Of a DNA stretch of 64,000 nt, positions 10,401 through 52,701 are shown in pieces (position 1 is the stretch's first letter; every line of letters begins with the position of its first letter). Made by a program: the position numbers and the translations under genes. The DNA is taken from positions 515,709 to 579,708 of the forward strand of contig BA000048.1 in NCBI GenBank assembly GCA_000270325.1, written 5' to 3'. Source of the stretch: Candidatus Caldarchaeum subterraneum (GTDB lineage: Archaea; Thermoproteota; Nitrososphaeria_A; Caldarchaeales; Caldarchaeaceae). Below the pieces are notes generated by a model. It did not search any database and was not told the origin of the DNA. It saw nothing but the letters and a program-made list of their open reading frames with translations.

Positions 10401-12238
10401 GCTCCGCCTTTCCACTTGACCTGTATCTCGAAGCCGCCCCACCGCGGGTCATCGCTGAGCTGTCTTGTCTTCATGTAGGTGATTTCGGGAATGAGGGCGC
10501 TCCAGTTCATGCCCGCGTTTATCCATGGTCCCTGCCAGCTTCCGCCCCACGCCTGCTCAAAGTATCCGCCTGGTCTCCATGCTGGAGAGACGTCGTCTGC
10601 TGGGTTGAAGAAGTAGCTGGCGTTGAGGCTTCCTCTGAGGCCCCAGTTGGTTCCGTTGGGGAAACGGGCGAATTTGCTGTACTGGCCTAGGTATCCAGGC
10701 CACTTGTGCGGGTCGTTGGTGCAGCCGTCGCTGCCCGTGGTGTGTATGCTGTGGGCCAGGTAGTAGGGTACATCAGCTGATGTCTTGAAGTTGAGGGTGA
10801 CCTCTGCCCCGACCATCTTATCGCCTATCCATGGATGCTGGATGGCAAGGTCAGCGTCCTGCACACAGAACCGAGCATAAAACACCGTGTTATTCTCAAA
10901 GTTCGCTATCGATGGCCCAACGGTCTCAACATTCGCAGTAGTGTCAGTGCCCTCCCATGTTGGCAGCAAGGGCCTAGGTGGGTCTATATACACTGTCTCG
11001 TTAAGTACGAGGCTGAACGGCCCAGCGGGAACACCTGTGATGCCTCCCTGCGTAATCGTTGGGTTGACCGATGGGTTTGATGGATAGGCTCCGAACAGAG
11101 GCCTTATCTTGCCGGTGGCAGGGTCGGTAGCATACTCGGGAGCATTTGGACCACCTGTTTGGTTGTATTCGTTTCCTACGTAGAAGGTCTGGTTGACGAG
11201 TACGGTCTCCCACCAGACACGCTTGGTGGCGTTGAGATGCGGAGCCTCGATAAAACCGTTGTTATCTTCAGGGTCAGGAATACCTCCTTCGAATGGTTCT
11301 CTGGTGCCGAGGTTGATGCTCTGCAGCGGTATTGGGACGAGGCGGTTCTGTGCAAACTTGCCTGAACCCACACCAGCGGAGCGTGGATAGATTTCACGAG
11401 TGTATCTGCTCTGGCCATCATCTCCGGTTATAGCCGCCTGTATCAGTGATTGTGTGGAGCTGGCGTCTGTGTGGTCGGTGTCGTATATGAATATCGTCGC
11501 ATAAGTCAACACATCATTGGTGGCGTACCATGTGTGTTCGTGGAAGAGCTTGAAGATGTAGGCCGCGCGAGCCAACCAAGCCCTCTGAGGATCGTTGTGG
11601 TTAATCTGGAAAGTTATTGGACCGGATGCATAGTTTACGTTGTCCACGGGCCCTGACCCGAGAGGCGGAAAGATGTTCCAGTTAAATGGACCACCGTGGG
11701 TATCTTCTATGCCGTCATCGTTTATAGTGCTGTTGAAAGCTGAGAACCCGAACTTGCTTAGGAAGCTCGGTGTGGGGTTGACTGTTAGCCAGTAGACTAT
11801 GATTCCTCGGAATGGGTTGCCCTCGCCGATACACTCACCCTGATAGCTCTTCGCCTTCACAATAATGGTAACGTTCTCCCAGCCAGCAGGCCACGAAACC
11901 CTGATGAAACCAGTGCCGTTAGGACTGCCCGCTCTAATCGGACCCTCCCAACTATCCAAAGGCGCAGTACTTGCTCCACTTGGGTTCTTGAACTTATACA
12001 GCTCAACACAGACATTCGTCACATTATACCTATCAGCAAAGCCAACACCAGTCGGCTGCACAGGAGGAGCACCAGCTACATAAGGTGCACCATCCCACGA
12101 AGCCGTCACTATTTTGAGCCATGCGGTGTAGTTCGGCTGCGCAAACGCCGGCGTGACAATCGCTGCTCCAAGGAAAGCCGTCGGAAGCGCTAGCAGCAAA
12201 GCTAGCAAAACTGCCTGACTTTTTCCAATCATCAACAC
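4448..12238 (-). CDS. Giant (2596 aa) secreted, membrane-anchored surface protein; S-layer or adhesin candidate
   Basis: Uninterrupted 7.8 kb ORF; N-terminal signal peptide, dense N-x-S/T sequons, C-terminal repeats of the ...DGRPVAGA... type (carboxypeptidase-regulatory-like), C-terminal TM helix plus basic tail. Confidence 0.8.
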   Translation of the reverse strand: MLMIGKSQAVLLALLLALPTAFLGAAIVTPAFAQPNYTAWLKIVTASWDGAPYVAGAPPVQPTGVGFADRYNVTNVCVELYKFKNPSGASTAPLDSWEGPIRAGSPNGTGFIRVSWPAGWENVTIIVKAKSYQGECIGEGNPFRGIIVYWLTVNPTPSFLSKFGFSAFNSTINDDGIEDTHGGPFNWNIFPPLGSGPVDNVNYASGPITFQINHNDPQRAWLARAAYIFKLFHEHTWYATNDVLTYATIFIYDTDHTDASSTQSLIQAAITGDDGQSRYTREIYPRSAGVGSGKFAQNRLVPIPLQSINLGTREPFEGGIPDPEDNNGFIEAPHLNATKRVWWETVLVNQTFYVGNEYNQTGGPNAPEYATDPATGKIRPLFGAYPSNPSVNPTITQGGITGVPAGPFSLVLNETVYIDPPRPLLPTWEGTDTTANVETVGPSIANFENNTVFYARFCVQDADLAIQHPWIGDKMVGAEVTLNFKTSADVPYYLAHSIHTTGSDGCTNDPHKWPGYLGQYSKFARFPNGTNWGLRGSLNASYFFNPADDVSPAWRPGGYFEQAWGGSWQGPWINAGMNWSALIPEITYMKTRQLSDDPRWGGFEIQVKWKGGARNGYGGSAVLVDSVRVRNPYAIAATNTTTYNGWIVPNVVLGNNTVLIKIHNEVTVTLSRGPLGTPRPIRGPVTLMISSNTPIGMRLQNYNPLTGTFDIFVNYPPGVDLRVDIVENATHGGFIRTPFTFSGVIASIKYHDAATNQPIVGNISYALAGWQDIGPDGVIDSTSIRRFNVTTTGETGAAEVEIWPGPPGSQTIRTLVSSNNTDIQTLDPAFTYNDFVGGMLFSGQPQSGTFAILNATKRQVVILQSLAPHKAPDIALARAGLVYITANVHDLAYRLVDNLGNPAPAANTAITLQRGNGPPITKTGASLIPDFFPSTGSLQWSYDQHGEGWAVFYQLPEDLAYMVTVTFDGTPVGEATVDKLTHTIMEDLVLRIYKVKLVFVDCENSPLSREAFVKVVPPSPATPYVTQLDSTGALDFGYLAGGQYTIDGVWWKGVWVKFTDARIGDDTLPLNPDGSLTFTVDSNIDSPIKLTALINDFIFTTWDYNQDNRIPRLNITLTWVGVHPLTGSRLYFLETMDPTGDTNTDKFNTTLAFSQFFRYRIDHFFGGISRSNGLKTYGDVRYVFYKMPSALYNITVTTVTTGDPETQQTPGNSKWPGRTVPVDYEIKIDWTSHSSPPSIRKTPAGQVNDRVVLRVYMTWNGEFVTDPNLNPIGNATLYKTCGPVRIDLLTWAHTFKQRIVDGDFDYLNEARRIGNATYHIVNDNGVNMEMFIPEDGVFSSLFVSKWTEDTLLTTWLKADSQHSSNIWWNGTYRKQDLTFYSYVYPLEFTRGEQPWARFYDKAGLTGSGWLTTQKGPLTSPGGDVRPGDSFLIREFFNPAVNETANGKWPTHNFTVVGNEGLWNQQRWRWEQAVAAGAVEEISTPFKGKRYIEVPTRPTTLVFEKEVVTVPIPVGFITLNLKDEDLARPIPYAVVQLDVYYDDSGTVDRSSSVLYKTGRDGNLTLLYPTQEAMENILGTNVVNYTLTVYWYLNSSIVYKDAFNLTKRGYSVDKVAIADVTFVLAISANKDRPVKDLYARIWWLNVTDGNTVFPGRITVDHARRTWTYTAVPETRGAAKWTTGQLTLPWLPTSERFTKSDWDLVFDSSAGRWVYDDVTRSWDIPYPSYEDGRMIDGWPYNPVPTGYDRRHPHLTNQENSRIQYRISVWSDQLPIDPSSPKYNNGAWQRDHYELVWRIPAQFPDAWMLFGHPPFDITFYRGTTGTGQFQPIPGYALTRTWTATPTPGSKVVAIKLNATDVDIPVFWQVGDYELGSYDCGPLLGYIVKGRIVPPLGATFAPKPIDAVTTAGTITVGDKTVNICISGKPVGLVTVTSGDTPSTVIWGGSTLVIDEVSPPPSIWYNDGTGQAGADNPNRGTTSNYWRNWVSQAIDPLTGQPVNLHVGDQLQVPGVDLGIQYMGYGRPYEGVARTATVTVVSNDPDNRAHRPFIKMFEFQNVSARITDFNGRPLPGAFYQIIDAQTGKSAAWSYAGPDGRIVPMPIRKPGGVFIQRVLYLGQGANGEPTWPVNSFARWPIAYDSRDDETTQETQKPDIPLGFAYTAEAGPWPTGDGWFRADVCRHAGDGSYNYTAGVLEALASCPPAGWGRSFDVITRIFDLRIRFVYGDAQRPADPAYVFSAPSLALPDDFIIRGQGAIFEAKRLARSSYDIVALWPDANGEEVGRRTFDVSRTNVGTVEGTVVLALRDLSFNVVDRQGRPVAGARVSVSPNLVREQDIQLRPDSIFTILRVPDGRTYDFTVEWTSPYGTTARAAVRDTPAGLQSRGSIVIPVDDVTLTVVDFDGRPVAGAAIRFGGQQVGSTDSQGVVIIGQVPLDNEYQIEVSKDGTTIGGDRVRFTASRTSATIQAGIYDIAVIVKGAAGQPIQGAIVELVRGGTTIATAATDASGSAVFSKVVGADYSVRASYEQFSNSANVARGVRSATIVLDLYTILFGVPMTLATFLALIIGLILLVIVVVVIVSEYIRWRGRRLGIYPAAPPKK

Positions 12239-17874: not shown

Positions 17875-18447
17875 TTGTCATCCACGGTCCTCGAGTATGA
17901 TGGACGTGCTTTTTACGAGCTTGTTGTGAAAGAGTTCCGCAGACAGCTGCCTCTTATACAGGTTTCGCCCGACACTTGGATAGCGTATTTCGACAGTTTG
18001 GGAGACCGTGAATTCATAGCCTATTGTGCAAAAATCCTCGCCGACCATCTGCGGGACTGCGAGATTCTGGTCACCTCGGAGAGCAAGGGGATACCGCTGG
18101 TTCATGAGATAGCCTCCACACTCGGCCACCCACGCTACATAGTCTGCAGAAAAGAGAGGAAAGCCTTCATGAAAGACCCGATAATCGTCACCTACAGACC
18201 CATTACCTCCGCGAAAGACCTGGAGCTGGTGATAGACGGTAGATACGTGCCCTACATCAAGGGCAAAAAAGTTGGAATAGTCGACGACATCGTCAGCACA
18301 AAAAACACCATGGAAGCTATGGAGAAAATCGTGAACCTAGCAGGCGGCATAGTCACCAAAAAAGCAACAGTCCTCGTCGAAGGCGAACACCACAAAGACG
18401 TCATTTACCTCGGCGTCCTCCCCATATTCAAAAAAACACGACAATAA
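17875..18447 (+). CDS. Phosphoribosyltransferase-fold protein with a variant PRPP motif
   Basis: VGIVDDIVSTKNTMEA resembles the PRPP-binding loop of type I PRTases but lacks the canonical Gly. Confidence 0.5.
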   Translation: MSSTVLEYDGRAFYELVVKEFRRQLPLIQVSPDTWIAYFDSLGDREFIAYCAKILADHLRDCEILVTSESKGIPLVHEIASTLGHPRYIVCRKERKAFMKDPIIVTYRPITSAKDLELVIDGRYVPYIKGKKVGIVDDIVSTKNTMEAMEKIVNLAGGIVTKKATVLVEGEHHKDVIYLGVLPIFKKTRQ

Positions 18448-18481: not shown

Positions 18482-18596
18482 AGCCCGGTCGTCTAGCGGC
18501 CAAACCTGGTCAGAAGAGGGCCATGGATCTCGGGCTCTGGATCACTCCTCTGTGAGGAGAACCCCGAGGACGCCGGTTCGAATCCGGCCCGGGCTA
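18482..18596 (+). tRNA. tRNA-Gln (anticodon CUG) with two 21-nt introns, one in the D-arm and one at the anticodon loop
   Basis: Exons align base-for-base with the intron-less tRNA-Gln(UUG) at 37525-37597 (AGCCCGG-UC-GUCU-AGCGGCCAA...GGAU); anticodon stem TCGGG/CCCGA, loop CUCUGG; T-arm GCCGG-TTCGAAT-CCGGC; discriminator A. Confidence 0.65.
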
Positions 18597-23579: not shown

Positions 23580-25919
23580 ATGATGAGCAAGTATGTGGGT
23601 AAGCCGATTAAGAGAAGAGAGGACCCGATTCTTTTGACAGGCCGTGGCAGATACGTTGACGATATTAAACTCCCCAACATGGTTTACGCAGGGTTTGTCC
23701 GCTCACCCTACGCACACGGCCGCATAGTCTCCATAGATCTTTCAGAGGCGCAGAAGCATCCCGATTTTGTCGCAGCTCTTCTCCCAGAGGAGGCTGCTCC
23801 GCTGCCCAGCTGGATGAAGTATAAAGGTCTCCGCGATGTTCCGAGGTTTTCGCTTGCACGGGGCAAGGTAAGGTTCGTGGGGGAGCCTGTTGTCGGCGTG
23901 GCTGTGAAGGACCGGTACAGCGTTGAGGAGGTTGTGTCGCTGGTTAACGTGGAGATTCAGCCGCTGCCCCCGGTTGTGGATGCTGAGGAGGGCCTCAAAC
24001 CCGGGGCGCCTCTACTCTACGAGGAGTGGGGGGACAACATCATCATGAACTACAGCTTCAAGGCCGGAGATGTGGAGGCGGCTTTTGCCTCAGCAGACCT
24101 TGTTCTACAGAGAAGATATGTGAACCAGAGGTATGCACCGACTCCGATTGAGGGCCGTGGCGTGGTGGCCGACTTCGACAAATCACGTGGAGAGCTGACT
24201 GTGTGGGACTCGACACAGTTTCCGCATGTTCTCCAGACATATCTTTCTCAGGCCCTCAACTATCCCGAGAACAGGATACGGGTGATTGCGCCCGATGTAG
24301 GCGGCGGCTTCGGGCCCAAGTCAAGCGTCTGGCCTGAGGAGGTCTCCACGATACAGCTCGCGATGAAGCTGGGGAGGCCGGTGAAATGGGTGGAGACAAG
24401 GAGCGAGCACATGCTTGTCTGCGGCCACGAGCGGCAGCAGGTCCACTATGTTGAAGCGGCTTTCAAGAGAGATGGTAAGCTTCTCGCCATACGTGACAAG
24501 GTCATCGCAGACATCGGTGTGTATGGTGCTTTCTGGACCGAGACCCAGCCTGTGATGGTTACTATGGCCGCTATCCCCGGCCCCTACCGCTTCGACGCCT
24601 ACCAATACGAAGTTTTCTGCGTGGCAACCAACAAGGCTCCTTATTCGCCGCACAGAGGATTCGGCAGACCTGTGGCCGCGTTTGTTATGGAGAGGTTGAT
24701 GAACGACGCCGCCGCAAACCTCGGCATCGACCCTGTGGAGATACGGCGCAGAAACCTCATACCCGCCGAGGCCATGCCATTCAAAAACATTCACAACATC
24801 GTGTATGACAGCGGCGACTACCCCAAAGCACTCGAAGAAGCCCTCAAGCTGGCGCAATATGATAGGCTGCGGCGCATGCAGGCCGAGGCCCGTAAACAGG
24901 GCCGCTTGATAGGAATAGGCATAGCGATGTATGTCGAATACACTACGCCGAGCAGCGAGAGGCTTGACAAGGGGCTTGGATGGGAGGTGGGCGGATATGA
25001 TTCGGCGACTGTGCGGATTGAGCCTGAGGGCAAGGTTGTTGTCTTGACGGGGACGGCGAGCCAGGGACAGGGCCACTACACCGTGTATGCACAGCTTGCA
25101 GCCGACTACCTCGGAGTAAACATGGATGATGTCACGGTTTTCGAGGGTGACAGCAAGACCTGTCCCTATGGGTTCGGCGCATGGGCGAGCCGCAGCACCG
25201 TCGCCGTCGGAGGAGCCATCATCAAAGCCTGTGAAACACTCCTCGCAAAAGTCAAACACATAGCCGCCCACATGCTGGAAGCCAGCCCCGAAGATATCGA
25301 GGCAAGCGACGGCAAACTCTACGTCAAAGGCTCACCAGACAAATACGTAACCTTCGCAGATGTCGCCAAGATAGCGTGGCGCCAGCCCACCCGTCTCCCA
25401 CCCGACACAGAGCCAGGCCTAGAGGCCACTGCACACTATGAGCCAAAAGCCTTCACCACATGCAGCTACGCCGTCCACATACCCGTGGTTGAAATAGACC
25501 CCGAGACAGGCCAGATGAAGGTGCTTGAGTACCATATCTTCGACGACAGCGGCCGCGTCCTCAACCCACTCACCCTCTACGGCCAGATACACGGCGCTTT
25601 GGCCCACGGCGTCGGCGGCGCAATATACGAGGAGCTTGTGTATGACGAGAATGGGCAGCTGCTTACAAGCACTTTCGCCGACTACCTCATCCCAAGCGCT
25701 GTGGAAATGTTTAACATGAACATAGGGCACATGGAGACACCTTCTCCGCAGCCCGGAGGATTCAAGGGCATGGGCGAGGGAGGAGCCATCGGCGCACCCG
25801 CTGCACTGGCCAACGCCGTCCAAGACGCTCTAGCACATCTCGGAGTAATCGTCGACCAGACACCTCTCAAACCCGAATACATCCGCAACCTGATAGCAAA
25901 AGCCAGAAAACCCGTTTAA
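23580..25919 (+). CDS. Molybdopterin-dependent oxidoreductase large subunit (xanthine dehydrogenase/aldehyde oxidoreductase family)
   Basis: N-terminal KPIKRREDPILLTGRGRYVDD and 779-aa size typical of CoxL/CutA-type subunits; no medium/small subunit genes adjacent. Confidence 0.7.
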   Translation: MMSKYVGKPIKRREDPILLTGRGRYVDDIKLPNMVYAGFVRSPYAHGRIVSIDLSEAQKHPDFVAALLPEEAAPLPSWMKYKGLRDVPRFSLARGKVRFVGEPVVGVAVKDRYSVEEVVSLVNVEIQPLPPVVDAEEGLKPGAPLLYEEWGDNIIMNYSFKAGDVEAAFASADLVLQRRYVNQRYAPTPIEGRGVVADFDKSRGELTVWDSTQFPHVLQTYLSQALNYPENRIRVIAPDVGGGFGPKSSVWPEEVSTIQLAMKLGRPVKWVETRSEHMLVCGHERQQVHYVEAAFKRDGKLLAIRDKVIADIGVYGAFWTETQPVMVTMAAIPGPYRFDAYQYEVFCVATNKAPYSPHRGFGRPVAAFVMERLMNDAAANLGIDPVEIRRRNLIPAEAMPFKNIHNIVYDSGDYPKALEEALKLAQYDRLRRMQAEARKQGRLIGIGIAMYVEYTTPSSERLDKGLGWEVGGYDSATVRIEPEGKVVVLTGTASQGQGHYTVYAQLAADYLGVNMDDVTVFEGDSKTCPYGFGAWASRSTVAVGGAIIKACETLLAKVKHIAAHMLEASPEDIEASDGKLYVKGSPDKYVTFADVAKIAWRQPTRLPPDTEPGLEATAHYEPKAFTTCSYAVHIPVVEIDPETGQMKVLEYHIFDDSGRVLNPLTLYGQIHGALAHGVGGAIYEELVYDENGQLLTSTFADYLIPSAVEMFNMNIGHMETPSPQPGGFKGMGEGGAIGAPAALANAVQDALAHLGVIVDQTPLKPEYIRNLIAKARKPV

Positions 25920-25975
25920 CATCTCTCCTTTTTTCCCTTAAATATTTGCTAGACCGTGTTTGACGCGGGTTCATA

Positions 25976-27166
25976 GTGGAGCGGCTTGAGCAGAAGCTGC
26001 TTGTTCAGAAGATTGAGCGCGGTGTTGTGATTGACCATATAGCCCCGTGCAAAGGTTTCCTCATCTACAGCATCCTCAACCCAGACCCTGGCTCGACAGC
26101 AGTCATAGCGAAAAACGTTCCTTCAACAAAGCTGGGCCGCAAAGACTTGGTTAAGATAGAGGGCGAATACATTACTTCGAGCCTCGTTAACGTCATCGCA
26201 CTCATCTCCCCGACAGCCACCATAAACATCATCGCCGACTGGAGTGTGAAGTCGAAAGAACGTGTAAACCCGCCCAGAGAAGTGGTGGGGGTCATCGACT
26301 GCAGAAACCCGTTATGCAGCTCAAAAGGGCCCAACAGCAGGTTCTACGTCAACCTAAACACCGAAAACCTCGAGCTAACCACCCTGAAATGTGGAAGCTG
26401 CGGATACGTCTACTATTATGAGGATGCTGTGAAGGAGATTTCGCAGCGTGCATCAAGCGGGATACTTGTGTCAAGGACACGTGTTCAGCGTGAGCTGTTG
26501 GACCTGCTTGTCAAGAAAGGCGGCCTCCGCTACCATCAAAAGTTTAGGCTGAAGAGCGGCAGGGTCAGCCCCTACTTCATCAACATGGGTGCTTTGAACG
26601 ACGGCGAGTCACTCTCCAAGCTACGATGGATATTCGCCAGCTACATAGCGCTGCTCCTCAAAGAAAACATCCTCGAAGACTTCGACTTCGTCTTCGGCCC
26701 CGCATACAAAGGCATCAACCTCGCGTCACTCGTCTGCGAAGGTTTGAAAGAATACTATGGAATAAACAAGCGTTTTCTCTATGACAGGAAAGAGGTGAAG
26801 GAATACGGCGACGTTAGGATGGATGGCAGCATCGTTGGTTCCGAGTATTTCCAGCCGGGGCAGAAGATACTGATTGTCGATGACACAGTGACGACTGGGA
26901 GGACGAAGGTGGCGTCGATAAAGAAGCTCGACTCGCTCGGCAGCCACAGAGTTGTCGCGGTCGTGGTCGCCGTCGACAGACAGGAAACATCCGAGGAAGA
27001 GGGGATAAGCGCTGTGGAATATCTTGAAAAGACTCTCGGCGTCAGGGTTCACCCAATTCTCACAGCCTCCAGCATCTATGAGATGATTAAGAGCGGGCTT
27101 TCTCAGGAGGAGCAGGAAGAATGGGTGCGATACTACCGGGACTATGGGGTGGTGAAGCTTTCTTGA
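25976..27166 (+). CDS. Fusion protein: aspartate carbamoyltransferase regulatory-subunit (PyrI) domain + orotate phosphoribosyltransferase (PyrE) domain
   Basis: N-terminal ~150 aa: LLVQKIERGVVIDHI, GRKDLVKIE, CRNPLCS...LKCGSCGY (PyrI Zn domain); C-terminal part: GRVSPYFINMGAL ... ILIVDDTVTTGRTK (PRTase PRPP motif). Confidence 0.7.
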   Translation: MERLEQKLLVQKIERGVVIDHIAPCKGFLIYSILNPDPGSTAVIAKNVPSTKLGRKDLVKIEGEYITSSLVNVIALISPTATINIIADWSVKSKERVNPPREVVGVIDCRNPLCSSKGPNSRFYVNLNTENLELTTLKCGSCGYVYYYEDAVKEISQRASSGILVSRTRVQRELLDLLVKKGGLRYHQKFRLKSGRVSPYFINMGALNDGESLSKLRWIFASYIALLLKENILEDFDFVFGPAYKGINLASLVCEGLKEYYGINKRFLYDRKEVKEYGDVRMDGSIVGSEYFQPGQKILIVDDTVTTGRTKVASIKKLDSLGSHRVVAVVVAVDRQETSEEEGISAVEYLEKTLGVRVHPILTASSIYEMIKSGLSQEEQEEWVRYYRDYGVVKLS

Positions 27167-27951
27167 GCAGCAATCCGCTGGAAAGGTTTCGAAAAGCCTT
27201 GGAGCAGAGAGGCTCGGTCATCTGCCTCGGCCTCGACCCCAACCCGGACCTACATCCCCAAACCACCGAGAAACTACGGTTCTGCCTCAACATGGTTGAC
27301 GCGGTGGAGCCCTACATCGCAGCCGTCAAAGTCAACGAAAACTTTGTCCGAGACTTTTCGCTCGCCGACCATAGAAGACTGACAGAGAAGATACGGGGTG
27401 TAGGCCTTGTCTCCATATATGACTGCAAGATGTGCGACATAGATAACACGGTCAAGGCAGGCATCAAGCTGGTCTCCGAGATGGGATACGACTTCATAAC
27501 CTTCAACCCCGTCATGGGAACACTATCAACAGCCGTGAAACACGGCTCCGCAAACAACGTCGGAATAATAGTGCTCCTGCATCCATCCAACCCCGAGTCC
27601 AGCAAATACTTTAGAGCAAAACTGGACGATGGTAGAAAAGTCTACGAAAAAATTCTCGACGAGTTTGTTGAAAACGATGCCGAAGGCGTTGTCGTCGGGC
27701 TTCATCCAGAGCTGAACGAGGCCGATGTAAGAGCTGTCAGAGAAGTCATAGGCGATGGGAAGATTGTTCTTTTCCCCGGTGTGGGAGCCCAAGGCGGAGA
27801 CCTCGCCACCGCCGTCAAAGCAGGCGGCTCAGCAATCCTCATCAACATCGGACGCTCCATAATCTACTCATCCAACCCCCGACAAGCCGTAATAAACATG
27901 TATAACCGCATACAGGAAATCAGACAAATACATGGGGAAAAACATTTTTAA
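27121..27951 (+). CDS. pyrF: Orotidine-5'-phosphate decarboxylase
   Basis: VICLGLDP and DCKMCDIDNTV (DxKxxDIxNT) motifs; start may be an internal codon because the ORF overlaps the preceding gene by 46 nt. Confidence 0.65.
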   Translation: MGAILPGLWGGEAFLSSNPLERFRKALEQRGSVICLGLDPNPDLHPQTTEKLRFCLNMVDAVEPYIAAVKVNENFVRDFSLADHRRLTEKIRGVGLVSIYDCKMCDIDNTVKAGIKLVSEMGYDFITFNPVMGTLSTAVKHGSANNVGIIVLLHPSNPESSKYFRAKLDDGRKVYEKILDEFVENDAEGVVVGLHPELNEADVRAVREVIGDGKIVLFPGVGAQGGDLATAVKAGGSAILINIGRSIIYSSNPRQAVINMYNRIQEIRQIHGEKHF

Positions 27952-37524: not shown

Positions 37525-37597
37525 TAGCCCCGGTGGGATTTGAACCCACGTCGCGGGCTCCAAAGGCCCGCATCCTTGGCCGCTAGACGACGGGGCT
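37525..37597 (-). tRNA. tRNA-Gln (anticodon UUG), no intron
   Basis: Acceptor AGCCCCG/CGGGGCT, anticodon stem CGGGC/GCCCG with loop CUUUGGA, T-arm GTGGG-TTCAAAT-CCCAC, discriminator A. Confidence 0.75.
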
Positions 37598-38145: not shown

Positions 38146-39624
38146 TTGCGCAGGTTGAGAATCGTTGTTGTAGGCGCCGGAGTGGGTGGTCTAGCGGCCG
38201 CCGCTCTGCTGGCGAGAGAAGGTCACGAGGTGACGGTTGCCGAGAAAAACAATAACGTCGGTGGAAGAGCAGGAGTGCTTAGCCGAGATGGGTTTACCTT
38301 CGACATGGGCCCCACATGGTATCTTATGCCGGAGATATTTGACCGCTTCTACAGCCACTTCGGCAAAAAAACCTCCGATTTTTACAATCTTCTGAAGCTT
38401 GACCCCGGGTACCGTGTCTTCTTTGACGACGGGGTCAAAGTGGATATATCGGCTGAGCTTGAGGAGAACATCCGTCTATTCGACGGGCTCGAGCCCAACG
38501 GAGGTGAGAAGCTGCGCAGATTTCTCGCAAAATGCGAAGAACTCTATAACAGCATATCAAAAACCCTATACCTCGACCTCGACTCTCCTTTCAGCTTCCT
38601 CAACCCGGAGATACTTTCCCAAGGAATCAAAATAAACATCTTCGAATCTGTCGAATCCTATGTAAAAAAATGGTTCCAATCAGACAAGGCCCGTAAACTG
38701 CTTCTCTACTCAATCGGGTTCATCGGTACACCGCCCTCCAAAGCACCCGCGTTCTACGCCATACTTAACTACGTCAAACTTGTCCAAGGCGTCTACATGC
38801 CTGAGCATGGTATCAGACAGGTTGTCGACACGTTGTACGGGTTGGCGAAGCAGGAGAATGTAGAGTTTCTCCTCGGACATGAGGTAAGTAAAATCGAGGT
38901 AACAAACTCGAAAGCCGAACGTGTCTACTTGAACGATTCTTCGATGAAGGTGGACGCCGTCGTCGTCAACGCCGACTATGCATTTTTCGAGACGAGGGTT
39001 CTCGAGCCACGTTACCGCACCTACGACGTCGACTACTGGAGCAAACGCATGTTCACACCATCAGCTCTCATCGCATACTTAGGATTAGACAAAAAAGTTG
39101 AAAATATTATTCCGCACAACGTTTTCCTCGAAAAAGACTGGGGTGAAAACTTTTACCAAATATTCGACCCACGTTACGCGAAATGGCCCGAATACGCCTC
39201 CTATTATGTGCATGTTCCCTCGAAGATAGATAAAACAGCAGCACCACCGGGGGGAGAAGCGGTCTTCATATTAATACCGGTCGCAAACGGCATAGAAGAC
39301 GATGACAAAAAACGCGAAACACTCTTCAACAACGTTCTCCGCGACCTCGAGCAGAAAACCGGGGAAAACATCCACGAAAACATCGTATTCAAACAATTGT
39401 TCAGCATAAGAGATTTTTCAGCACGCTACCACGCATACCGTGGCTCGGCGCTTGGTCTCGCCCACACACTTGGACAAACAGCTTTCTGGAGACCTGTGCA
39501 CAGAAGCAAAAAGGTCAAAAACCTCTACTACACCGGTCAGTATACTCATCCAGGAATAGGTGTGCCGATGGTGTTGATATCCGCGGAGATTATCCGTAAC
39601 AAGCTGCGAAAGGAGTTGATGTAG
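38146..39624 (+). CDS. crtI: Phytoene desaturase (CrtI family)
   Basis: N-terminal FAD fold IVVVGAGVGGLAAAALLAREGHEVTVAEKNNNVGGRA; about 490 aa; followed by phytoene synthase. Confidence 0.8.
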   Translation: MRRLRIVVVGAGVGGLAAAALLAREGHEVTVAEKNNNVGGRAGVLSRDGFTFDMGPTWYLMPEIFDRFYSHFGKKTSDFYNLLKLDPGYRVFFDDGVKVDISAELEENIRLFDGLEPNGGEKLRRFLAKCEELYNSISKTLYLDLDSPFSFLNPEILSQGIKINIFESVESYVKKWFQSDKARKLLLYSIGFIGTPPSKAPAFYAILNYVKLVQGVYMPEHGIRQVVDTLYGLAKQENVEFLLGHEVSKIEVTNSKAERVYLNDSSMKVDAVVVNADYAFFETRVLEPRYRTYDVDYWSKRMFTPSALIAYLGLDKKVENIIPHNVFLEKDWGENFYQIFDPRYAKWPEYASYYVHVPSKIDKTAAPPGGEAVFILIPVANGIEDDDKKRETLFNNVLRDLEQKTGENIHENIVFKQLFSIRDFSARYHAYRGSALGLAHTLGQTAFWRPVHRSKKVKNLYYTGQYTHPGIGVPMVLISAEIIRNKLRKELM

Positions 39625-40509
39625 ATGCTTATTCCAAAGCCTCCGCGTGTGCAGAAAACCTTGTTCAACCTATTCCACAAGGGAAGCACAACATACTTTA
39701 ACAGCACCCTCTTCTTCCCCGACAACGTCAAAAAAGACGTGTTCAAACTCTATGCATTCCTACGTAAAGCAGACAATTACGTAGACCTCATTCCACAGGA
39801 TGTGGAAGGATTCTACGCGTTCAAAGAAGAATATGAGCGAGCCGCATCCGGGTATCAATCGTCTGACATTGTCATCAACGAGTTTGTAGAACTCTCCAAC
39901 AGGAAGAAATTTGAGCAGGAATGGATAACCGCCTTCCTCGACGCGATGGAGTCGGACCTCTACCGCAAAACATACTATACACTCGACGAGCTCTGCGTCT
40001 ACATGTATGGCTCCGCCGAGGTCGTCGGCCTATTTATGGCCAAGATTCTTGATTTGCCTGAGGAGTCCTATATCTACGCAAGGTTTCTCGGTCGGGCGAT
40101 GCAGTACATCAACTTCATTAGAGACATTCGGGAGGATTATGAGCTGGGTCGCCAGTATCTACCCTACGAGGAGATGCGTATGCATGGAATTGAAGATTTT
40201 GAGCCGGCGCGTTTCTGCGGAAAACACGAAAGCTTCGCACGGTTCATTCGGTTGCAAATTGAGCGTTACCTCGAGTGGCAGCGGTTTGCTGAGCAGGGCT
40301 ACAAATACATACCGTACCGCTATTTGATACCTATTAAGACGGCGGCGGACATGTACAAGTGGACGGCTAAAATAATTCACAGACATCCGTCGATAGTTTT
40401 TATGCGTAAGGTGAAGCCGAGAAAGCGTAGGGTAGTTTACGGGGCCAACGTCAACTTTGTATTGGCTCTTCGACACAAAATTTTTACCGGGGGGCTGGTA
40501 TGGCCCTAG
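39625..40509 (+). CDS. crtB: Phytoene synthase (squalene/phytoene synthase family)
   Basis: KLYAFLRKADNYVD and YMYGSAEVVG regions typical of CrtB; abuts crtI and overlaps the next gene. Confidence 0.75.
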   Translation: MLIPKPPRVQKTLFNLFHKGSTTYFNSTLFFPDNVKKDVFKLYAFLRKADNYVDLIPQDVEGFYAFKEEYERAASGYQSSDIVINEFVELSNRKKFEQEWITAFLDAMESDLYRKTYYTLDELCVYMYGSAEVVGLFMAKILDLPEESYIYARFLGRAMQYINFIRDIREDYELGRQYLPYEEMRMHGIEDFEPARFCGKHESFARFIRLQIERYLEWQRFAEQGYKYIPYRYLIPIKTAADMYKWTAKIIHRHPSIVFMRKVKPRKRRVVYGANVNFVLALRHKIFTGGLVWP

Positions 40510-41366
40510 AAGCTGTCCAGAAAGTGCTTAAGGTCTCACGCTTTCGTTTCTGGATTTATGTGGCAGGTCCATACGTAGTCGGCTACACACTCGGCGCCAC
40601 AGGATTCAGCGACTTTCTCCGACCCGAGTACTACATCTATCTGATCTATTTCTTCATCCCCGCTAACATATTGGTCTACGGTGTTAATGACTATTTTGAT
40701 GTTGAGACGGATGCGTTGAATCCGAAGAAGAGTTCGAAGGAGCTGCGAATTGTTGGCAGAGATAGGGTTAGGCTGCGGAGGCTGCTTCTCGGTGTGCTTG
40801 GTATAAGCTTTGCATTAATGCTTTTCCAGGATAATGTGGCGCGTATCCTGTTCGGTGGATTTCTGTTTCTCTCGATTTTCTACAGCGCGCCTCCGTTGCG
40901 TTTCAAGAGTAAACCCTTCCTCGACTTCGCCTCGAACTATCTCTACATCATGCCGGGGGTCTTCGGCCACTACATCGCCTCAGGCAGCCTTCCCGATACA
41001 CTCATACTTCTGGCAGGGTTTCTACACATATCCGCTATGCACATCTTCTCAGCAGTTCCCGATATAGAGTTCGACCTAGCAGCAGGAATCAAAACAACCC
41101 CGGTTGTCATCGGCAGAAAAAACGCGCTAATACTGGTGACAGTTTTCTGGGCAGGCCTTGCATATTTAGCAATCATGCTAACGGGATTTCATCCTCTAAG
41201 CTTTTTGGCACTAATCTACCCCATGGTGCCGCTGTCTGTTCTGGTTTTCGGACGCGACATAAACCGTGTCTACTGGTCTCTTCCATACATCAACACATCT
41301 TTGGGCGGGCTTCTCTGGCTAGGACTCGTCAACCACAAGATCATCCCGTTTTTCCCGAATTTTTAG
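40500..41366 (+). CDS. UbiA-family prenyltransferase, possibly a carotenoid (lycopene) elongase
   Basis: NDYFDVETD (NDxxDxxxD) and DIEFD Asp-rich motifs, polytopic membrane protein, translationally coupled to crtB. Confidence 0.6.
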   Translation: MALEAVQKVLKVSRFRFWIYVAGPYVVGYTLGATGFSDFLRPEYYIYLIYFFIPANILVYGVNDYFDVETDALNPKKSSKELRIVGRDRVRLRRLLLGVLGISFALMLFQDNVARILFGGFLFLSIFYSAPPLRFKSKPFLDFASNYLYIMPGVFGHYIASGSLPDTLILLAGFLHISAMHIFSAVPDIEFDLAAGIKTTPVVIGRKNALILVTVFWAGLAYLAIMLTGFHPLSFLALIYPMVPLSVLVFGRDINRVYWSLPYINTSLGGLLWLGLVNHKIIPFFPNF

Positions 41367-41375
41367 AGAACCGTT

Positions 41376-41903
41376 ATGCAGATTTTTAGGCCATATGTTG
41401 ATTGGGCTAGGTCGGCCGCGGTTCTCGACGACCTGCGTCTAGGCAAACAGCGTGTAGAGTCCAAGCAGGTTCTGAACGTTTTTCTACGGAAGGCCGGTAT
41501 TCTCAGAGATGGGTTGCGCGGCTGGCTTAACCATCCGATTGTTCTACTTTACTACAACGACGGCAGGCCCTATGTCGACGACGTGGTGGGAATGTTCATC
41601 GCTTGTGTCAAAGAATGGGTGAGACGGGGAAAACAAAACAGCATAAACCTCGATGACATAAAGCATCTCCTCGACCAGCTAGAGAAAACACCCGGCACGC
41701 CTATTACCCATCTCCACGAAATAGAGTATCGGCGAATTCTTCTACTAAAAAACCCCAGCCATTACATCAAAACCTTCACAGAGGAGGAGGTTAGAGAGGT
41801 GTTGGAGACCGAGCCCGTGAAAATAAGCGGCATAAACTCTTGGTTATTTGATGACATGCGGCGTTACAGGCGGCTTTTGAAGAAAATTAGGGCGAGGCTA
41901 TAG
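41376..41903 (+). CDS. Hypothetical protein; weak resemblance to the pyrimidine-dimer DNA glycosylase (UV endonuclease) family
   Basis: N-terminus MQIFRPYVDWARSAAVLDDLRLGKQRVESKQVL...GWLNHPIV recalls the MxIWRxHP...WRE...NHP pattern; unverified. Confidence 0.3.
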   Translation: MQIFRPYVDWARSAAVLDDLRLGKQRVESKQVLNVFLRKAGILRDGLRGWLNHPIVLLYYNDGRPYVDDVVGMFIACVKEWVRRGKQNSINLDDIKHLLDQLEKTPGTPITHLHEIEYRRILLLKNPSHYIKTFTEEEVREVLETEPVKISGINSWLFDDMRRYRRLLKKIRARL

Positions 41904-42386
41904 CTTGTATCCTATTTTTCTGAGGAATTGTTTGCGGGCCTCGATGTGCTGCTCGGTTTCTATGCCTTTTGGCTTGTGGCCGTCGACTACTCCGAGGACG
42001 CCGCGGCCCTGCTCTGTCTCGGCGACTATTATCTGGAGGGGGTTAGCTGTGGCGGCGAGGATTGTGCATACCTCGGGCACGTCCTTGAGCCGCTGCATGA
42101 TGTTGATGGGGTAGAATCCCTTGATGAAGAGGATGAAGGTGTGGCCGCATCCTATCCTGAGCATGGTTTCGGCGGCGTGTTTCCGCAGCTCCGGGTCAGT
42201 TCCCTCATGGCGGACGAGGCATTCGCCGCTCGCCTCCATGAAAGCGAGGCCAAATTTAGCCCCCGGAACCGTGTTGACAACCGCCTCGTAAATGTCTTCG
42301 ACGGTTTTGATGAAGTGGGAGACGCCGAAGACCACGTTGCAGCCCTCAGGAATCTCGACACCAACAACCTCTATCTTAACGCTCAC
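41898..42386 (-). CDS. Adenosine-specific kinase family protein (COG1839-like)
   Basis: FGVSHFIKTVEDIYEAV, GECLVRHEG, PINIMQRLKDVPEV, GRGVLGVVDG match remembered family pattern. Confidence 0.5.
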   Translation of the reverse strand: MSVKIEVVGVEIPEGCNVVFGVSHFIKTVEDIYEAVVNTVPGAKFGLAFMEASGECLVRHEGTDPELRKHAAETMLRIGCGHTFILFIKGFYPINIMQRLKDVPEVCTILAATANPLQIIVAETEQGRGVLGVVDGHKPKGIETEQHIEARKQFLRKIGYKL

Positions 42387-42418
42387 AACACTCGTTGTCG
42401 CGGCTTGCTTATGTGTTT

Positions 42419-43483
42419 TTAGAGGGTTCTTTCGACGAGGAATGTTGCGAGTTTTTTGAGCTTTGTCTTGGCTGGTGTGTCGGCGAGAAGAGGCTCAACC
42501 CTGCTCCATGCCATGTGAACGCTTCGCCGCATAACCTCCCGAGCATATTTGTCTGCGCCCGATTCTCTGATGAGGTTGATTGCTTCTTTGAGCTCTTGTT
42601 TGTCGGATGTGTGGCTGTGAAGTATCTGTCTGAGTCTTTTCGCTTTTTCGGATGAGAGATGTGTCAGGGCATACACCGTCATAAGGGTGTATTTGCCCTC
42701 GGTTATGTCGCCGCCTATCTCCTTCCCGTATCTCGCCTCGTCGCCGAAGATGTTGAGATAGTCGTCCTGTATCTGGAAAGCTGTTCCAACAGCTTCACCG
42801 AAGCGGCCAAGCTCCTCGAGAAGGTCTCCGCGTCCGGCGTATATGGCTGCAAGCTCGACGGCGAACCTTGACAAAGCACCTGTCTTGAAAGCAGCCATCT
42901 GGAGATAATGCTCCTCGGTGATGTCTGTTACGAGTCCTCGGTGCCATACGATGTCCATGGTTTGGCCGAGGCTGAGCCTTGTCATCGTCTCGACATATTT
43001 CTCGAGAAAGAGTGTGGCCATGTTTTTGGGCAGCTTTTTCGCGGCTAAGTATGCCGGGATGTAGTAGTAGGCGTTGCCTGCGTTGATGGCGATGTCTATG
43101 CCGTAGATGCGGTGGATGCATGGCTCTCCTCTTCTCATGAGGCTTCCGTCCTCTACGTCGTCGACTATCAAGGTGGCGTTGTGGATGATTTCGGGAACAG
43201 CGGCCAAGATGTAGATGCCAGGGTCTCCGCCGCCCAGAGCCTCATAAACTATCACCGTCAAAGCCGGCCGCCATCTCTTGCCTCCTCTCCTGAAAAGCTC
43301 CCAAAACGGTTTAGCCAGCCCCTCGGTAAATGACTCGGGGCTGTAGCGGTAAACAGGCTCACCAAACTCCTTCACGAGAAAACCTGTGTCAAACATTCTG
43401 GGTGTGAGCTTTTCAACAGCCTTCTCCACAGGCTCCACATATTCGGAGAGAATTGACAGAACCTCGTCCTCTAAGCTCATCAC
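42419..43483 (-). CDS. Geranylgeranyl diphosphate synthase (polyprenyl synthase family)
   Basis: First and second Asp-rich motifs LIVDDVEDGSLMRRG and FQIQDDYLNIFGD. Confidence 0.8.
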   Translation of the reverse strand: MMSLEDEVLSILSEYVEPVEKAVEKLTPRMFDTGFLVKEFGEPVYRYSPESFTEGLAKPFWELFRRGGKRWRPALTVIVYEALGGGDPGIYILAAVPEIIHNATLIVDDVEDGSLMRRGEPCIHRIYGIDIAINAGNAYYYIPAYLAAKKLPKNMATLFLEKYVETMTRLSLGQTMDIVWHRGLVTDITEEHYLQMAAFKTGALSRFAVELAAIYAGRGDLLEELGRFGEAVGTAFQIQDDYLNIFGDEARYGKEIGGDITEGKYTLMTVYALTHLSSEKAKRLRQILHSHTSDKQELKEAINLIRESGADKYAREVMRRSVHMAWSRVEPLLADTPAKTKLKKLATFLVERTL

Positions 43484-45747: not shown

Positions 45748-46116
45748 ATGGTTGATGAGATGCATTACGAAGAATTTCGAAAAACACTCGAAAACCTTGT
45801 AGCAGAAGCAGTCGAAGATGTTGTTGTTCTTGTGGAGGGCGCGCGGGATGAGAAGGCGCTCCGCCTCGCTGGTGTTCGTGCAAAAATAGTGTATGTTAGC
45901 AGGTTTCGTGAAGCGGTGGAGATGATGCCGAGGCCGCGTAAAATCATTCTGCTTCTCGATTTTGACAGCGAGGGGATGAAGACTGTGAAGAGAGTTTCTC
46001 GGCTGCTGAGGCAAATGGGTTACGAGGTTGACGAAAGCTATCACAGGCGGCTACGTGTGCTCAAGCGCTTCGGCATCACAACCGTCGAGGCGTTGGCGAA
46101 ACTCCTCGAGGTTTAG
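45748..46116 (+). CDS. Small Toprim-domain protein (COG1658-like)
   Basis: VVLVEGARDEKAL and ILLLDFDSEG resemble Toprim Glu and DxD elements. Confidence 0.5.
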   Translation: MVDEMHYEEFRKTLENLVAEAVEDVVVLVEGARDEKALRLAGVRAKIVYVSRFREAVEMMPRPRKIILLLDFDSEGMKTVKRVSRLLRQMGYEVDESYHRRLRVLKRFGITTVEALAKLLEV

Positions 46117-52616: not shown

Positions 52617-52701
52617 GCGGGGGTCGCCAAGCCTGGTCAACGGCGCAGGACTGAGGCTCCTGTCCCGAAGGGGTTCGTGGGTTCAAATCCCACCCCCCGC
52701 A
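52617..52701 (+). tRNA. tRNA-Leu (anticodon GAG), type II, no intron
   Basis: Acceptor GCGGGGG/CCCCCGC, anticodon stem CAGGA/TCCTG with loop CUGAGGC, 14-nt variable arm, T-arm GTGGG-TTCAAAT-CCCAC, discriminator A. Confidence 0.75.

Follow-up and report, generated by a model that had tools for sequence, protein, structure and literature searches.

The genome of Candidatus Caldarchaeum subterraneum carries a gene in which a module resembling PyrI, the regulatory chain of aspartate carbamoyltransferase (ATCase), is fused to a complete orotate phosphoribosyltransferase (OPRTase, PyrE). The fusion is genuine and old, and it occurs widely across several groups of archaea. As a tentative reading, to which we give slightly less than an even chance, the product is a nucleotide-regulated OPRTase, with the regulation acting inside the same protein. 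The window, by which we mean the whole 64 kb stretch of DNA that was analyzed, contains the gene as a single unbroken open reading frame (ORF) in the ORF listing, with a GTG start and a product of 396 amino acids. The protein begins with a PyrI allosteric domain and a zinc domain with four cysteines; a short conserved linker then leads to an OPRTase of the E. coli/yeast type (Table 1). It is 100% identical to BAJ50428.1 (UniRef100_E6N5R2; Ca. Caldiarchaeum subterraneum).

Table 1. Features of the fusion gene and its surroundings. Positions are those of the window; residues are those of the fusion protein.
Feature	Position	Strand	Extent and basis
TATA-box-like element TTAAATAT	25938..25945	+	about 31–38 nt upstream of the GTG; read from the sequence
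Whole fusion gene	25976..27166	+	396 codons plus TGA; PyrI-like sensor and OPRTase
PyrI allosteric (nucleotide-binding) domain	26000..26275	+	residues 9–100; PF01948, conservation, alignment A1
PyrI zinc domain	26276..26416	+	residues 101–147; alignment, fold match
Linker	26417..26473	+	residues 148–166; AF2 model, alignment A1
Complete OPRTase (PyrE) domain	26474..27163	+	residues 167–396; TIGR00336, 2PRY, 1ORO, residue mapping
pyrF (OMP decarboxylase, subfamily 2)	27121..27951	+	TIGR02127, 117.4 bits against a cut-off of 110.6

The search for the same fusion in related genomes, which the sequence-only reading of this DNA had proposed, returned 82 clusters of full-length homologous proteins with identities from 97% down to 43%. 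Among the best 80 of 216 GTDB matches, 68 loci are full length, which corresponds to at least 68 species-level genomes. The lineages with the fusion are the Caldarchaeales, Bathyarchaeia, Geothermarchaeales, and some Nitrososphaerales, and the hosts are mostly thermophiles and archaea of anaerobic sediments. A neighbor-joining (NJ) tree of the PyrE domain that carries no support values does not gather the fused proteins into one clean clade. No other fusion partner of PyrI was seen among the best 150 of 1130 representative PyrI-domain matches, where the only protein of fusion length was P0082 (409 aa). We found no paper describing the PyrI–PyrE architecture in the literature searched and no curated family for it.

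The domain matches of the fusion protein are far above chance. In Pfam, PyrI (PF01948) matches residues 9–97 with 91.9 bits (E 3e-26; cut-off 25), PyrI_C (PF02748) matches residues 102–149 with 16.7 bits, which is under its cut-off of 23.4, and Pribosyltran matches residues 234–350. The NCBIfam model for pyrE (TIGR00336) scores 115.8 bits at residues 182–365, above its cut-off of 106.8. The model for the ATCase regulatory chain (TIGR00240, ATCase_reg) scores 118.1 at residues 6–143 against a cut-off of 148.55, so that the equivalog level is not reached; NF002063 scores 82.8 on the fused PyrI domain against a cut-off of 171. The fold match obtained with Foldseek covers both domains of 1PG5_B (151 columns, TM 0.75) and of 4KH0_B. 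The PF01948 score, the four zinc cysteines, and the match to 1PG5_B bear out the claim of the sequence-only reading that the N terminus is an ATCase regulatory chain. Its second claim, a stop-free run into a complete PyrE, also holds, with one ORF, a TIGR00336 score above cut-off, and a match to 2PRY over nearly the full length.

The OPRTase half is complete. Residues 170–392 align to residues 8–224 of 226 of the yeast enzyme (2PRY) in a PDB sequence search. Foldseek superposes the domain on yeast OPRTase with a TM score of 0.86 normalized to the target (rmsd 2.5), and the type I phosphoribosyltransferase (PRTase) fold with its hood is present at full length. Residues were mapped onto the E. 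coli PyrE sequence. K193, R196, F201, Y244, K245, and R271 correspond there to K26, R29, F34, Y72, K73, and R99; K272, E273, K275, D302, D303, and R335 correspond to K100, E101, K103, D124, D125, and R156. The PRPP-binding motif, the flexible-loop Lys/Arg residues, and the orotate-site residues are all present, and most are invariant in alignment A1, which holds 46 homologues. The domain is predicted to be fully functional (orotate + PRPP → OMP + PPi). Stand-alone PyrE relatives in other archaea (50–57% identity) begin at the equivalent of residues 164–167.

The nucleotide pocket of the allosteric domain is preserved. The equivalents of E. coli V9, I12, D19, H20, K56, K60, T82, N84, V91, and K94, which line the CTP/ATP pocket in structures of E. 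coli ATCase, each reach a conservation of at least 80%, among fused and stand-alone domains alike. The fused set carries further constraints of its own. The segment of residues 61–68 is fusion-specific, with a motif E-G-x-Y-x-T-S at residues 62–68, and K92 is likewise particular to the fused proteins.

In the zinc domain, the four cysteines (C109, C114, C139, and C142) are invariant across the 46 homologues. N111 is at least 90% conserved and lies inside the motif C-x-N-[PL]-x-C, much as in stand-alone archaeal PyrI. The domain is otherwise derived. Fused zinc domains have an insertion of 4–5 residues ahead of the second CxxC, the equivalent of Y140 is a serine, and the E119-type loop is missing in the Caldarchaeales clade. 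E119 and Y140 are 92% and 97% conserved in stand-alone zinc domains, whereas the fused set keeps them weakly or not at all; their equivalents are lost in the window's clade, and the window protein has neither.

The linker consists of a helix (residues 148–161) predicted by AF2, followed by a conserved G-x-L-V-S in which L164 and S166 are at least 90% conserved. The AF2 model (pTM 0.78, mean pLDDT 84) has two domains and a helical linker. It suggests a defined inter-domain arrangement rather than beads on a string, although this is a weak point. An internal start at V165, which would yield a free PyrE, does not hold up, since 45 of 79 loci have GTC at this codon and no more than 12 have GTG.

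In archaeal promoters, the TATA box precedes the start of transcription by about 26 nt. The position of the TTAAATAT element suggests that the fusion gene is transcribed from a promoter of its own, into an mRNA with a short leader or none. At its 3′ end, the gene overlaps with pyrF by 46 nt if pyrF starts at ATG 27121, or by 4 nt (TTGA) if it starts at TTG 27163; the latter is the annotated start in a 97%-identical MAG. The overlapping pyrF that had been noted from the letters of the DNA is thus confirmed with either start, its TIGR02127 score being above cut-off. The two genes are probably co-transcribed and translationally coupled. A PRTase gene at 17875..18447 was considered as a second pyrE and rejected; it matches the adenine-PRTase subfamily NF005592 (187 bits against a cut-off of 143).

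The fused PyrI domains form a clade in 88 of 100 NJ bootstraps, and the stand-alone PyrI proteins that share a genome with them fall outside it. Two genomes are particularly informative, one from the Geothermarchaeales (L088) and one from the Nitrososphaeria (L096, found separately from the set of 91 related loci). In both, an operon of pyrD, a pyrK-like gene, pyrF, and the fusion gene is convergent to pyrB, which is followed by a stand-alone pyrI (156 and 161 aa, respectively). The canonical pyrI is translationally coupled to pyrB, and the distance from fusion to pyrB is just 0.5–1.5 kb. The stand-alone PyrI of L088 passes TIGR00240 (152.5 against 148.55), as opposed to 118.1 for the fused domain in the window. 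Because a canonical pyrB–pyrI operon adjoins it, the fused PyrI of these two genomes is a paralogue and not the sole ATCase regulatory chain. Of the 91 related loci, L088 alone has the fusion within 10 kb of a pyrB, and this pyrB has its own pyrI.

The situation in the order of the window may differ. Four clusters with an Aigarchaeota-type pyrB (P0192, P0183, P0160, and L103) have no pyrI within 1.7–10 kb, up to the contig ends, so that in the order of the window the fused protein may supply the sole PyrI. Overall, pyrI is near pyrB in 33 of 90 PyrB loci, mostly Bathyarchaeia-like. A tblastn search of the 64 kb window with the PyrB of E. coli gave just a chance match of 20 residues (E = 7); the same query found pyrB of L088 at E 3e-75. 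The absence of pyrB from the window, pointed out by the sequence-only reading, is therefore upheld. It says less than that reading assumed, because related archaea often encode pyrB and pyrI at separate sites. No pyrB on the Caldarchaeum contigs of 1.68 Mb, 1.50 Mb, and 0.70 Mb appeared among the top 120 homologues of a Geothermarchaeales PyrB query, and the matches listed by a metagenome scan for pyrB or a stand-alone pyrI of C. subterraneum were mostly distant PyrB. Neighboring accession numbers tied no PyrB to a fusion protein from the same MAG. The literature search on pyrB in Aigarchaeota gave a general statement only. For one locus, L182 (GC 50.6%), tetranucleotide correlation gave no assignment to Caldarchaeum (r 0.60, compared with 0.71–0.96 among Caldarchaeum loci).

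We favor regulation within the protein because the fusion is conserved, because the fused PyrI forms a separate clade, and because it coexists with canonical pyrBI in two genomes. The sensor is read as intact since all ten pocket positions are conserved. The enzyme is read as intact since TIGR00336 is above cut-off, the TM score is 0.86, and the catalytic and PRPP-motif residues are present. The surface that would couple them is read as remodeled, given that E119 and Y140 are lost or weak, and that E-G-x-Y-x-T-S, K92, the insertion, and G-x-L-V-S are particular to the fused set. In this ancient fusion, a diverged PyrI paralogue is joined via a short linker to the N terminus of OPRTase, and the product is probably expressed together with pyrF. 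In the mechanism we propose, the PyrI-like module would still bind nucleoside triphosphates as its ATCase counterpart does, whether CTP, UTP, or ATP. The signal would travel within the same polypeptide or dimer, through the remodeled zinc domain and the linker, to the OPRTase. The PRPP-consuming fifth step of pyrimidine synthesis would then be under direct end-product control, possibly also by purines, independently of ATCase; we infer the direction of the effect on OPRTase activity. Several points speak against this. OPRTase is not a classical allosteric control point, and the zinc domain, for which we know of no role but attachment to the ATCase catalytic chain, is retained with all four cysteines and N111. 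The fused domains of a Bathyarchaeia/Geothermarchaeales subclade, described below, and the four pyrB clusters without a nearby pyrI also weigh against it. The sequence-only reading had offered two interpretations, nucleotide-responsive regulation of OPRTase or an artefact or lost stop codon. The conserved pocket and the paralogue beside pyrBI lead us to prefer the former, as an inference; the latter, as an artefact, is refuted.

Alternatively, the fused PyrI may dock through its zinc domain on PyrB trimers and tether OPRTase to ATCase in a metabolon. We regard this as unlikely, but as the most serious competitor. The fused PyrI would be the sole or an alternative regulatory chain, OPRTase domains would be part of the ATCase holoenzyme, and a single nucleotide-responsive complex would house steps 2 and 5 of pyrimidine synthesis. 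The retained zinc domain, with its invariant cysteines and with N111 in its motif, is consistent with docking. So are the fused domains of a Bathyarchaeia/Geothermarchaeales subclade, which mostly retain the E119-type loop and Y140; from these residues, binding of PyrB by the domains of this subclade is quite possible. The four pyrB clusters that lack a nearby pyrI, and the proximity of fusion and pyrB in L088 and L096, point in the same direction. In the latter two genomes, however, where the genome context is complete, pyrI is coupled to pyrB and the fusion is not needed as a regulatory chain. It is precisely at the zinc-domain positions most strongly conserved in free PyrI that the fused clade has diverged, and the window protein has lost both; the fused domain is also under the PyrI equivalog cut-off. 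Moreover, the C terminus of the zinc domain continues directly as a helix and then a domain of 230 aa, and these may collide with the catalytic chain, judging from E. coli ATCase. A literature search on the ATCase interface found nothing. In a more elaborate and still more doubtful version, PyrI–PyrE would be a bridging subunit, with the zinc domains on PyrB trimers and the OPRTase domains dimerizing. This would build an ATCase–OPRTase super-complex, perhaps replacing the free regulatory chain in Aigarchaeota. Such a super-complex would couple the committed step with the PRPP-consuming step under nucleotide regulation.

It is improbable that the PyrI-like module has no regulatory sensing role and is an oligomerization or thermostabilizing appendage, or a slowly decaying relic. 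PyrI allosteric domains form dimers in ATCase, the family is largely found in thermophiles and anaerobic sediment archaea, and the PyrI_C profile is below threshold in the window protein, all of which would fit a structural role. Against it, lineages that otherwise differ by more than 50% have kept the pocket residues to the same degree as genuine PyrI, and a relic would have lost them. The clade-specific conserved motifs and the conserved linker also argue against it. In addition, the domain is trimmed in no sampled lineage, save for a deletion allele that also removes pyrE and pyrF.

An artefact of assembly or sequencing, or a recent strain-specific stop loss between adjacent pyrI and pyrE, is scarcely credible, since the unbroken ORF recurs in independent assemblies, in fosmid-derived genomes, and in MAGs of several orders, down to 43% identity. 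The missed stop, frameshift, or local stop loss suspected earlier is countered by the recurrence of this ORF, with its conserved linker; at least 68 genomes at the species level have it, and it makes up over 80 protein clusters. Separate pyrI and pyrE genes with a stop codon at the junction had been named as the decisive observation in relatives. Only one relative (JGI 3300066320, L010/L011) is called as two genes, but its split is a +1 frameshift within the zinc domain rather than a stop codon where the two domains meet, with the second CxxC read in the "pyrE" frame, and its assembly has other split genes too. We rejected P0122, from this locus, as evidence for two genes, and also P0124 (L183/L184), a 1,469-bp deletion allele in which the zinc domain, pyrE, and most of pyrF are gone. 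Several proteins of about 240–250 aa that appear to be stand-alone PyrE (P0089, P0099, and P0116) start within the linker, nest among fused Bathyarchaeia, and look like truncated calls.

The N-terminal half resembles the PyrI of E. coli, Sulfolobus acidocaldarius (1PG5 chain B), and Methanocaldococcus jannaschii (2YWW) in having an allosteric and a Cys4 zinc domain (TM 0.71–0.77), with 32–36% identity and shared nucleotide-pocket residues and zinc ligands. ATCase PyrI, however, is a separate chain of some 150 aa whose gene usually adjoins pyrB. The fused domain is part of a 396-aa protein, belongs to a separate clade below the TIGR00240 and PF02748 cut-offs, and has a remodeled zinc surface. 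A stand-alone PyrE of the E. coli/yeast type (about 213–240 aa) is in its entirety equivalent to residues ~167–396 of the fusion (TM 0.86 to yeast Ura5p) and lacks the N-terminal regulatory module of 166 residues. We know of no OPRTase with a dedicated nucleotide-sensing domain that has been solved or described. Foldseek found no PDB chain that covers both halves, the best query-normalized TM score being 0.49.

Other proteins likewise join neighbors of the pathway in one polypeptide, namely PyrB–PyrI (NF009916/PRK13376), the PyrF–PyrE UMP synthase (NF004034; eukaryotic UMPS), and CAD. Unlike these, the present fusion combines the regulatory chain of step 2 with the enzyme of step 5. The models of the known fusions align only over the single shared domain (NF009916, 26.5 against 800; NF004034, 42.2 against 656). 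The adjoining pyrF recalls the pairing in PyrF–PyrE UMP synthase. For the mechanism we favor, ligand sensors fused to or associated with enzymes, such as ACT domains and the PRTase-fold regulator PyrR, provide a functional analogy. Their folds and history differ, and the sensor of the fusion is generally known so far only as a detachable subunit of ATCase.

To our knowledge, PyrI, a textbook allosteric subunit, has been described at work only on ATCase. Here, a conserved lineage of PyrI-like modules is permanently attached to another enzyme of the same pathway. This lineage covers the Bathyarchaeia and three orders of the Nitrososphaeria, and at least two genomes have it beside a normal PyrB–PyrI pair. 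Should the module regulate OPRTase, no earlier OPRTase would have had a nucleotide sensor of its own, and the PyrI module would be movable to another enzyme. If it docks on PyrB, there would be a new ATCase–OPRTase complex. Annotation pipelines label the fusion proteins either "orotate phosphoribosyltransferase" or "ATCase regulatory subunit", and this can lead to miscounts of pyrI or pyrE in pathway reconstructions of uncultured archaea.

A PyrI-type regulatory chain of aspartate carbamoyltransferase (ATCase) and a PyrE-type orotate phosphoribosyltransferase (OPRTase) share one stop-free ORF, as the sequence-only reading had proposed, and the end of this ORF does overlap pyrF. One half clearly belongs to the PyrI fold family, the other to the PyrE family. 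In addition to the two PyrI domains, the phosphoribosyltransferase domain was matched by Pfam. The NCBIfam pyrE model scored 115.8 bits over residues 182–365 (cut-off 106.8). The ATCase regulatory-subunit model scored 118.1 bits over residues 6–143, below its equivalog cut-off of 148.55. A PDB sequence search aligned residues 5–145 with archaeal and E. coli PyrI chains, and residues 170–392 with nearly the entire yeast and E. coli OPRTases. Stand-alone archaeal relatives of the same PyrE subfamily start at the equivalent of residues 164–167. BAJ50428.1/BAJ47631.1 (UniRef100_E6N5R2) of Ca. Caldiarchaeum subterraneum has exactly the sequence of this protein (100% identity). An element, TTAAATAT, located 31–38 nt upstream of the GTG codon, looks like an archaeal TATA box, from which a leaderless or short-leader mRNA would arise.

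Features of the fusion gene (residue numbers of its product) and of the surrounding window (nucleotide positions)
Feature	Position	Strand	Details
Fusion gene	25976..27166	+	Single unbroken ORF, GTG start, 396 codons, TGA stop
PyrI allosteric domain	residues 9-97 (Pfam); 9-100 (anatomy)		Pfam, 91.9 bits
PyrI_C zinc domain	residues 102-149 (Pfam); 101-147 (anatomy)		Weak Pfam match, 16.7 bits, below the 23.4 cut-off
Linker	residues 148-166		Predicted helix 148-161 (AlphaFold model)
OPRTase	residues 167-396		
pyrF	27121 or 27163 to 27951		Downstream of fusion, overlap 46 or 4 nt
Molybdenum-hydroxylase large subunit	23580-25919	+	779 aa, directly upstream of fusion
Giant ORF	4448-12238	-	2,595 aa; CarboxypepD_reg/Ig-like at ~2460-2530, faint DUF7382 at 2388-2406; other ~2,400 residues without Pfam match
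tRNA-Ser(GGA)	18503-18596	+	94 nt; ARAGORN call, Rfam tRNA model below gathering score
tRNA-Gln	37525-37597		ARAGORN and Rfam
tRNA-Leu	52617-52701		ARAGORN and Rfam
Isoprenoid/carotenoid-like cluster	38146-43483		Amine-oxidase-type desaturase, squalene/phytoene synthase, UbiA prenyltransferase, polyprenyl synthetase
Pyrimidine-dimer DNA glycosylase	41376-41903		Within the isoprenoid/carotenoid-like cluster
GXGXG + class-II amidotransferase gene	46113-48386	-	756 aa
Glu_synthase FMN domain gene	49098-50333	-	410 aa
Reverse gyrase	58655-62182	-	Helicase, Toprim and topoisomerase IA domains, reverse-gyrase zinc finger

The sequence-only reading had also considered a missed stop or sequencing error at the junction, with separate pyrI and pyrE genes expected in relatives. 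The opposite was found. Among 5.8 billion proteins searched, 82 clusters (359–438 aa) span both halves, with identity falling from 97% to 43%. A scan with one genome per GTDB species gave 216 related loci, and 68 of the best 80 carry both domains: eight Caldarchaeum-type genomes, other Aigarchaeota, Geothermarchaeales, one Nitrososphaerales MAG, and about 55 Bathyarchaeia, including closed chromosomes. In a 46-member alignment the zinc cysteines and OPRTase catalytic residues are invariant. The linker motif G-x-L-V-S is conserved, with L164 and S166 kept in at least 90% of members. The sole relative called as two genes (L010/L011) was rejected as a case of separate pyrI and pyrE, because it is divided by a +1 frameshift within the zinc domain in an assembly with further broken genes, and so represents the fusion in damaged form. 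Recurrence across several archaeal groups with a conserved linker, and a frameshift as the cause of the lone split, exclude an artefact for practical purposes. Full or partial copies are also filed in GTDB under Krumholzibacteriaceae, Patescibacteria, and Desulfaltia MAGs (L027, L030, and L076). These are most likely mis-binned Bathyarchaeia contigs, since they resemble Bathyarchaeia copies and are 48–52% identical to the window protein.

The enzyme half should be active, as suggested by its conserved and mostly invariant residues. Positions K26, R29, F34, Y72, K73, R99, K100, E101, K103, D124, D125, and R156 of E. coli OPRTase are all conserved in the fusion, and most are invariant across the 46-member alignment; the mapping agrees with the 1ORO match. 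The fusion is the only pyrE-like gene within the window. A phosphoribosyltransferase gene at 17875..18447 was rejected as a second pyrE; its product is of the adenine-phosphoribosyltransferase type.

The PyrI half is a paralogue of canonical PyrI. The whole pathway neighbourhood is readable in two genomes, L088 (Geothermarchaeales) and L096. The latter, a MAG of Nitrososphaeria, was reached via its PyrB, which shares 74% identity with the PyrB of L088. In both, an operon of pyrD, a pyrK-like gene, pyrF, and the fusion runs convergently towards pyrB, after which comes a stand-alone pyrI (156 or 161 aa). The stand-alone PyrI of L088 scores 152.5 bits, above the equivalog cut-off that the window's fused domain does not reach. 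Neighbour-joining on the PyrI region groups the fused domains into a single clade with support from 88 of 100 bootstraps, apart from stand-alone PyrI of the same genomes; the pattern points to one ancient event of duplication and fusion, after which the gene was inherited vertically.

We compared 39 stand-alone PyrI with 46 fused sequences. Residues V9, I12, D19, H20, K56, K60, T82, N84, V91, and K94 of E. coli PyrI, which line its CTP/ATP pocket, are each conserved to 80% or more in the stand-alone as well as the fused set, as are the four cysteines and N111. E119 (92% in stand-alone PyrI) is a gap or variable in the fused set, and Y140, at 97% in stand-alone PyrI, falls there to 43%. In the Caldarchaeales subclade, to which the window protein belongs, the E119 loop is deleted and Y140 is replaced by Ser; members of the Bathyarchaeia/Geothermarchaeales subclade mostly keep both residues. 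The fused set also has constraints of its own (E-G-x-Y-x-T-S at 62–68, K92, A45), a one- to two-residue deletion near 38, and a 4–5-residue insertion before the second CxxC. Judged from these alignments, with the pocket conserved while E119 and Y140 are not conserved across the fused set, selection acts on the sensor pocket as it does in ATCase, and the surface normally facing the catalytic chain is reshaped.

The reported absence of pyrB held over the full 64-kb window, with a query shown to work on L088. Of the fusion loci read, only two have pyrB 10 kb away or less, namely L088 and L096. A PyrI-like neighbour is present at 33 of 90 PyrB loci, and Bathyarchaeia-type pyrB often has a free pyrI adjoining (L098 and many metagenome loci). 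None of the four Aigarchaeota-type PyrB clusters (P0192 from Ca. Geocrenenecus, P0183, P0160, and L103) has pyrI beside pyrB within 1.7–10 kb, as far as the contigs reach. In three of the four, pyrB is near, paired with, or divergent from the dihydroorotase gene pyrC. This arrangement (L092–L095, L099–L101, L103, L182) differs from that in Bathyarchaeia and Geothermarchaeales, where pyrB and pyrI are paired. The search did not find pyrB of C. subterraneum itself: the PyrB matches listed include none on long Caldarchaeum contigs. Free pyrI unlinked to pyrB also occurs: hot-spring archaeal contigs L008/L009 carry a stand-alone two-domain pyrI (6001–6477, 158 aa) with no pyrB within 6 kb, an orphan regulatory-chain gene.

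An AlphaFold model built from 46 homologues has a mean pLDDT of 84 and a pTM of 0.78. It resembles yeast OPRTase (TM 0.86) and also both domains of ATCase regulatory chains (TM 0.71–0.77); a PDB fold search found no solved chain spanning both fusion halves. We tentatively favour a nucleotide-regulated OPRTase, because the fused module coexists with canonical pyrBI, forms a separate clade, and has an intact pocket and an altered zinc-domain surface, and because the pTM of the two-domain model is fairly high. The PyrI-like module would bind pyrimidine triphosphates, perhaps purine triphosphates too, and the remodelled zinc domain and conserved linker would carry the signal that modulates the attached OPRTase. 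In the main rival reading, rather unlikely in our estimate, the module would have kept its docking on PyrB, with OPRTase tethered to ATCase as a result. It draws on the retained zinc domain, which is more canonical in the Bathyarchaeia/Geothermarchaeales subclade, and on Aigarchaeota pyrB genes that lack an adjoining pyrI. Regulation and docking may even both hold, each in its own lineages. A module with only a structural role, or a relic, is improbable, fitting poorly with the conserved nucleotide pocket.

The fused half differs from the ATCase regulatory subunit in its sub-equivalog score, in not being a free subunit, and in lacking linkage to pyrB; for these reasons it is "PyrI-like" rather than "the" regulatory subunit. 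The protein matches neither the PyrB-PyrI nor the PyrF-PyrE/UMPS pyrimidine fusions, and NCBIfam holds no model for a PyrI-PyrE architecture. Public annotations read OPRTase or ATCase regulatory subunit, and "conserved hypothetical" in the original genome. The fusion is a real, conserved architecture, with no experimental study found in the literature searched. A full-text search, mostly of journals without subscription, found no paper mentioning a PyrI-PyrE fusion, although an earlier remark is possible, and only a general statement on pyrB in Aigarchaeota. Among the best 150 of 1130 representatives with PyrI-domain matches, only one has the fusion length and none has another fusion partner; from these matches, PyrE fusion seems to be the sole redeployment of the PyrI module. 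This is surprising for readers who know PyrI solely as an ATCase subunit, and it offers two sharply differing hypotheses that are cheaply testable.

Two metagenome contigs (L183:4001-4560 and L184:397-960; JGI 3300066320 and 3300071268) carry, relative to L010, a 1,469-bp deletion allele in a Caldarchaeum-related population. PyrI residue ~97 is joined to the C-terminal part of pyrF; pyrE is gone, as are the zinc domain and the greater part of pyrF. This is a natural pyrEF-null variant, presumably auxotrophic for uracil, and it occurs together with the full-length (frameshifted) allele in 3300066320. The molybdenum-hydroxylase large subunit of the window has no adjacent FAD or Fe-S subunits; the NCBIfam model that fits it best, glyceraldehyde dehydrogenase alpha, gives 719.5 bits against a cut-off of 790. 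Complete clusters of this type adjoin pyrC/pyrB in other Aigarchaeota (L092:1318-3675; L099:4132-6486), so the neighbourhood recurs. Reverse gyrase, a hallmark of thermophiles, is also encoded in the window, and glutamate-synthase-like functions lie on two separate genes.
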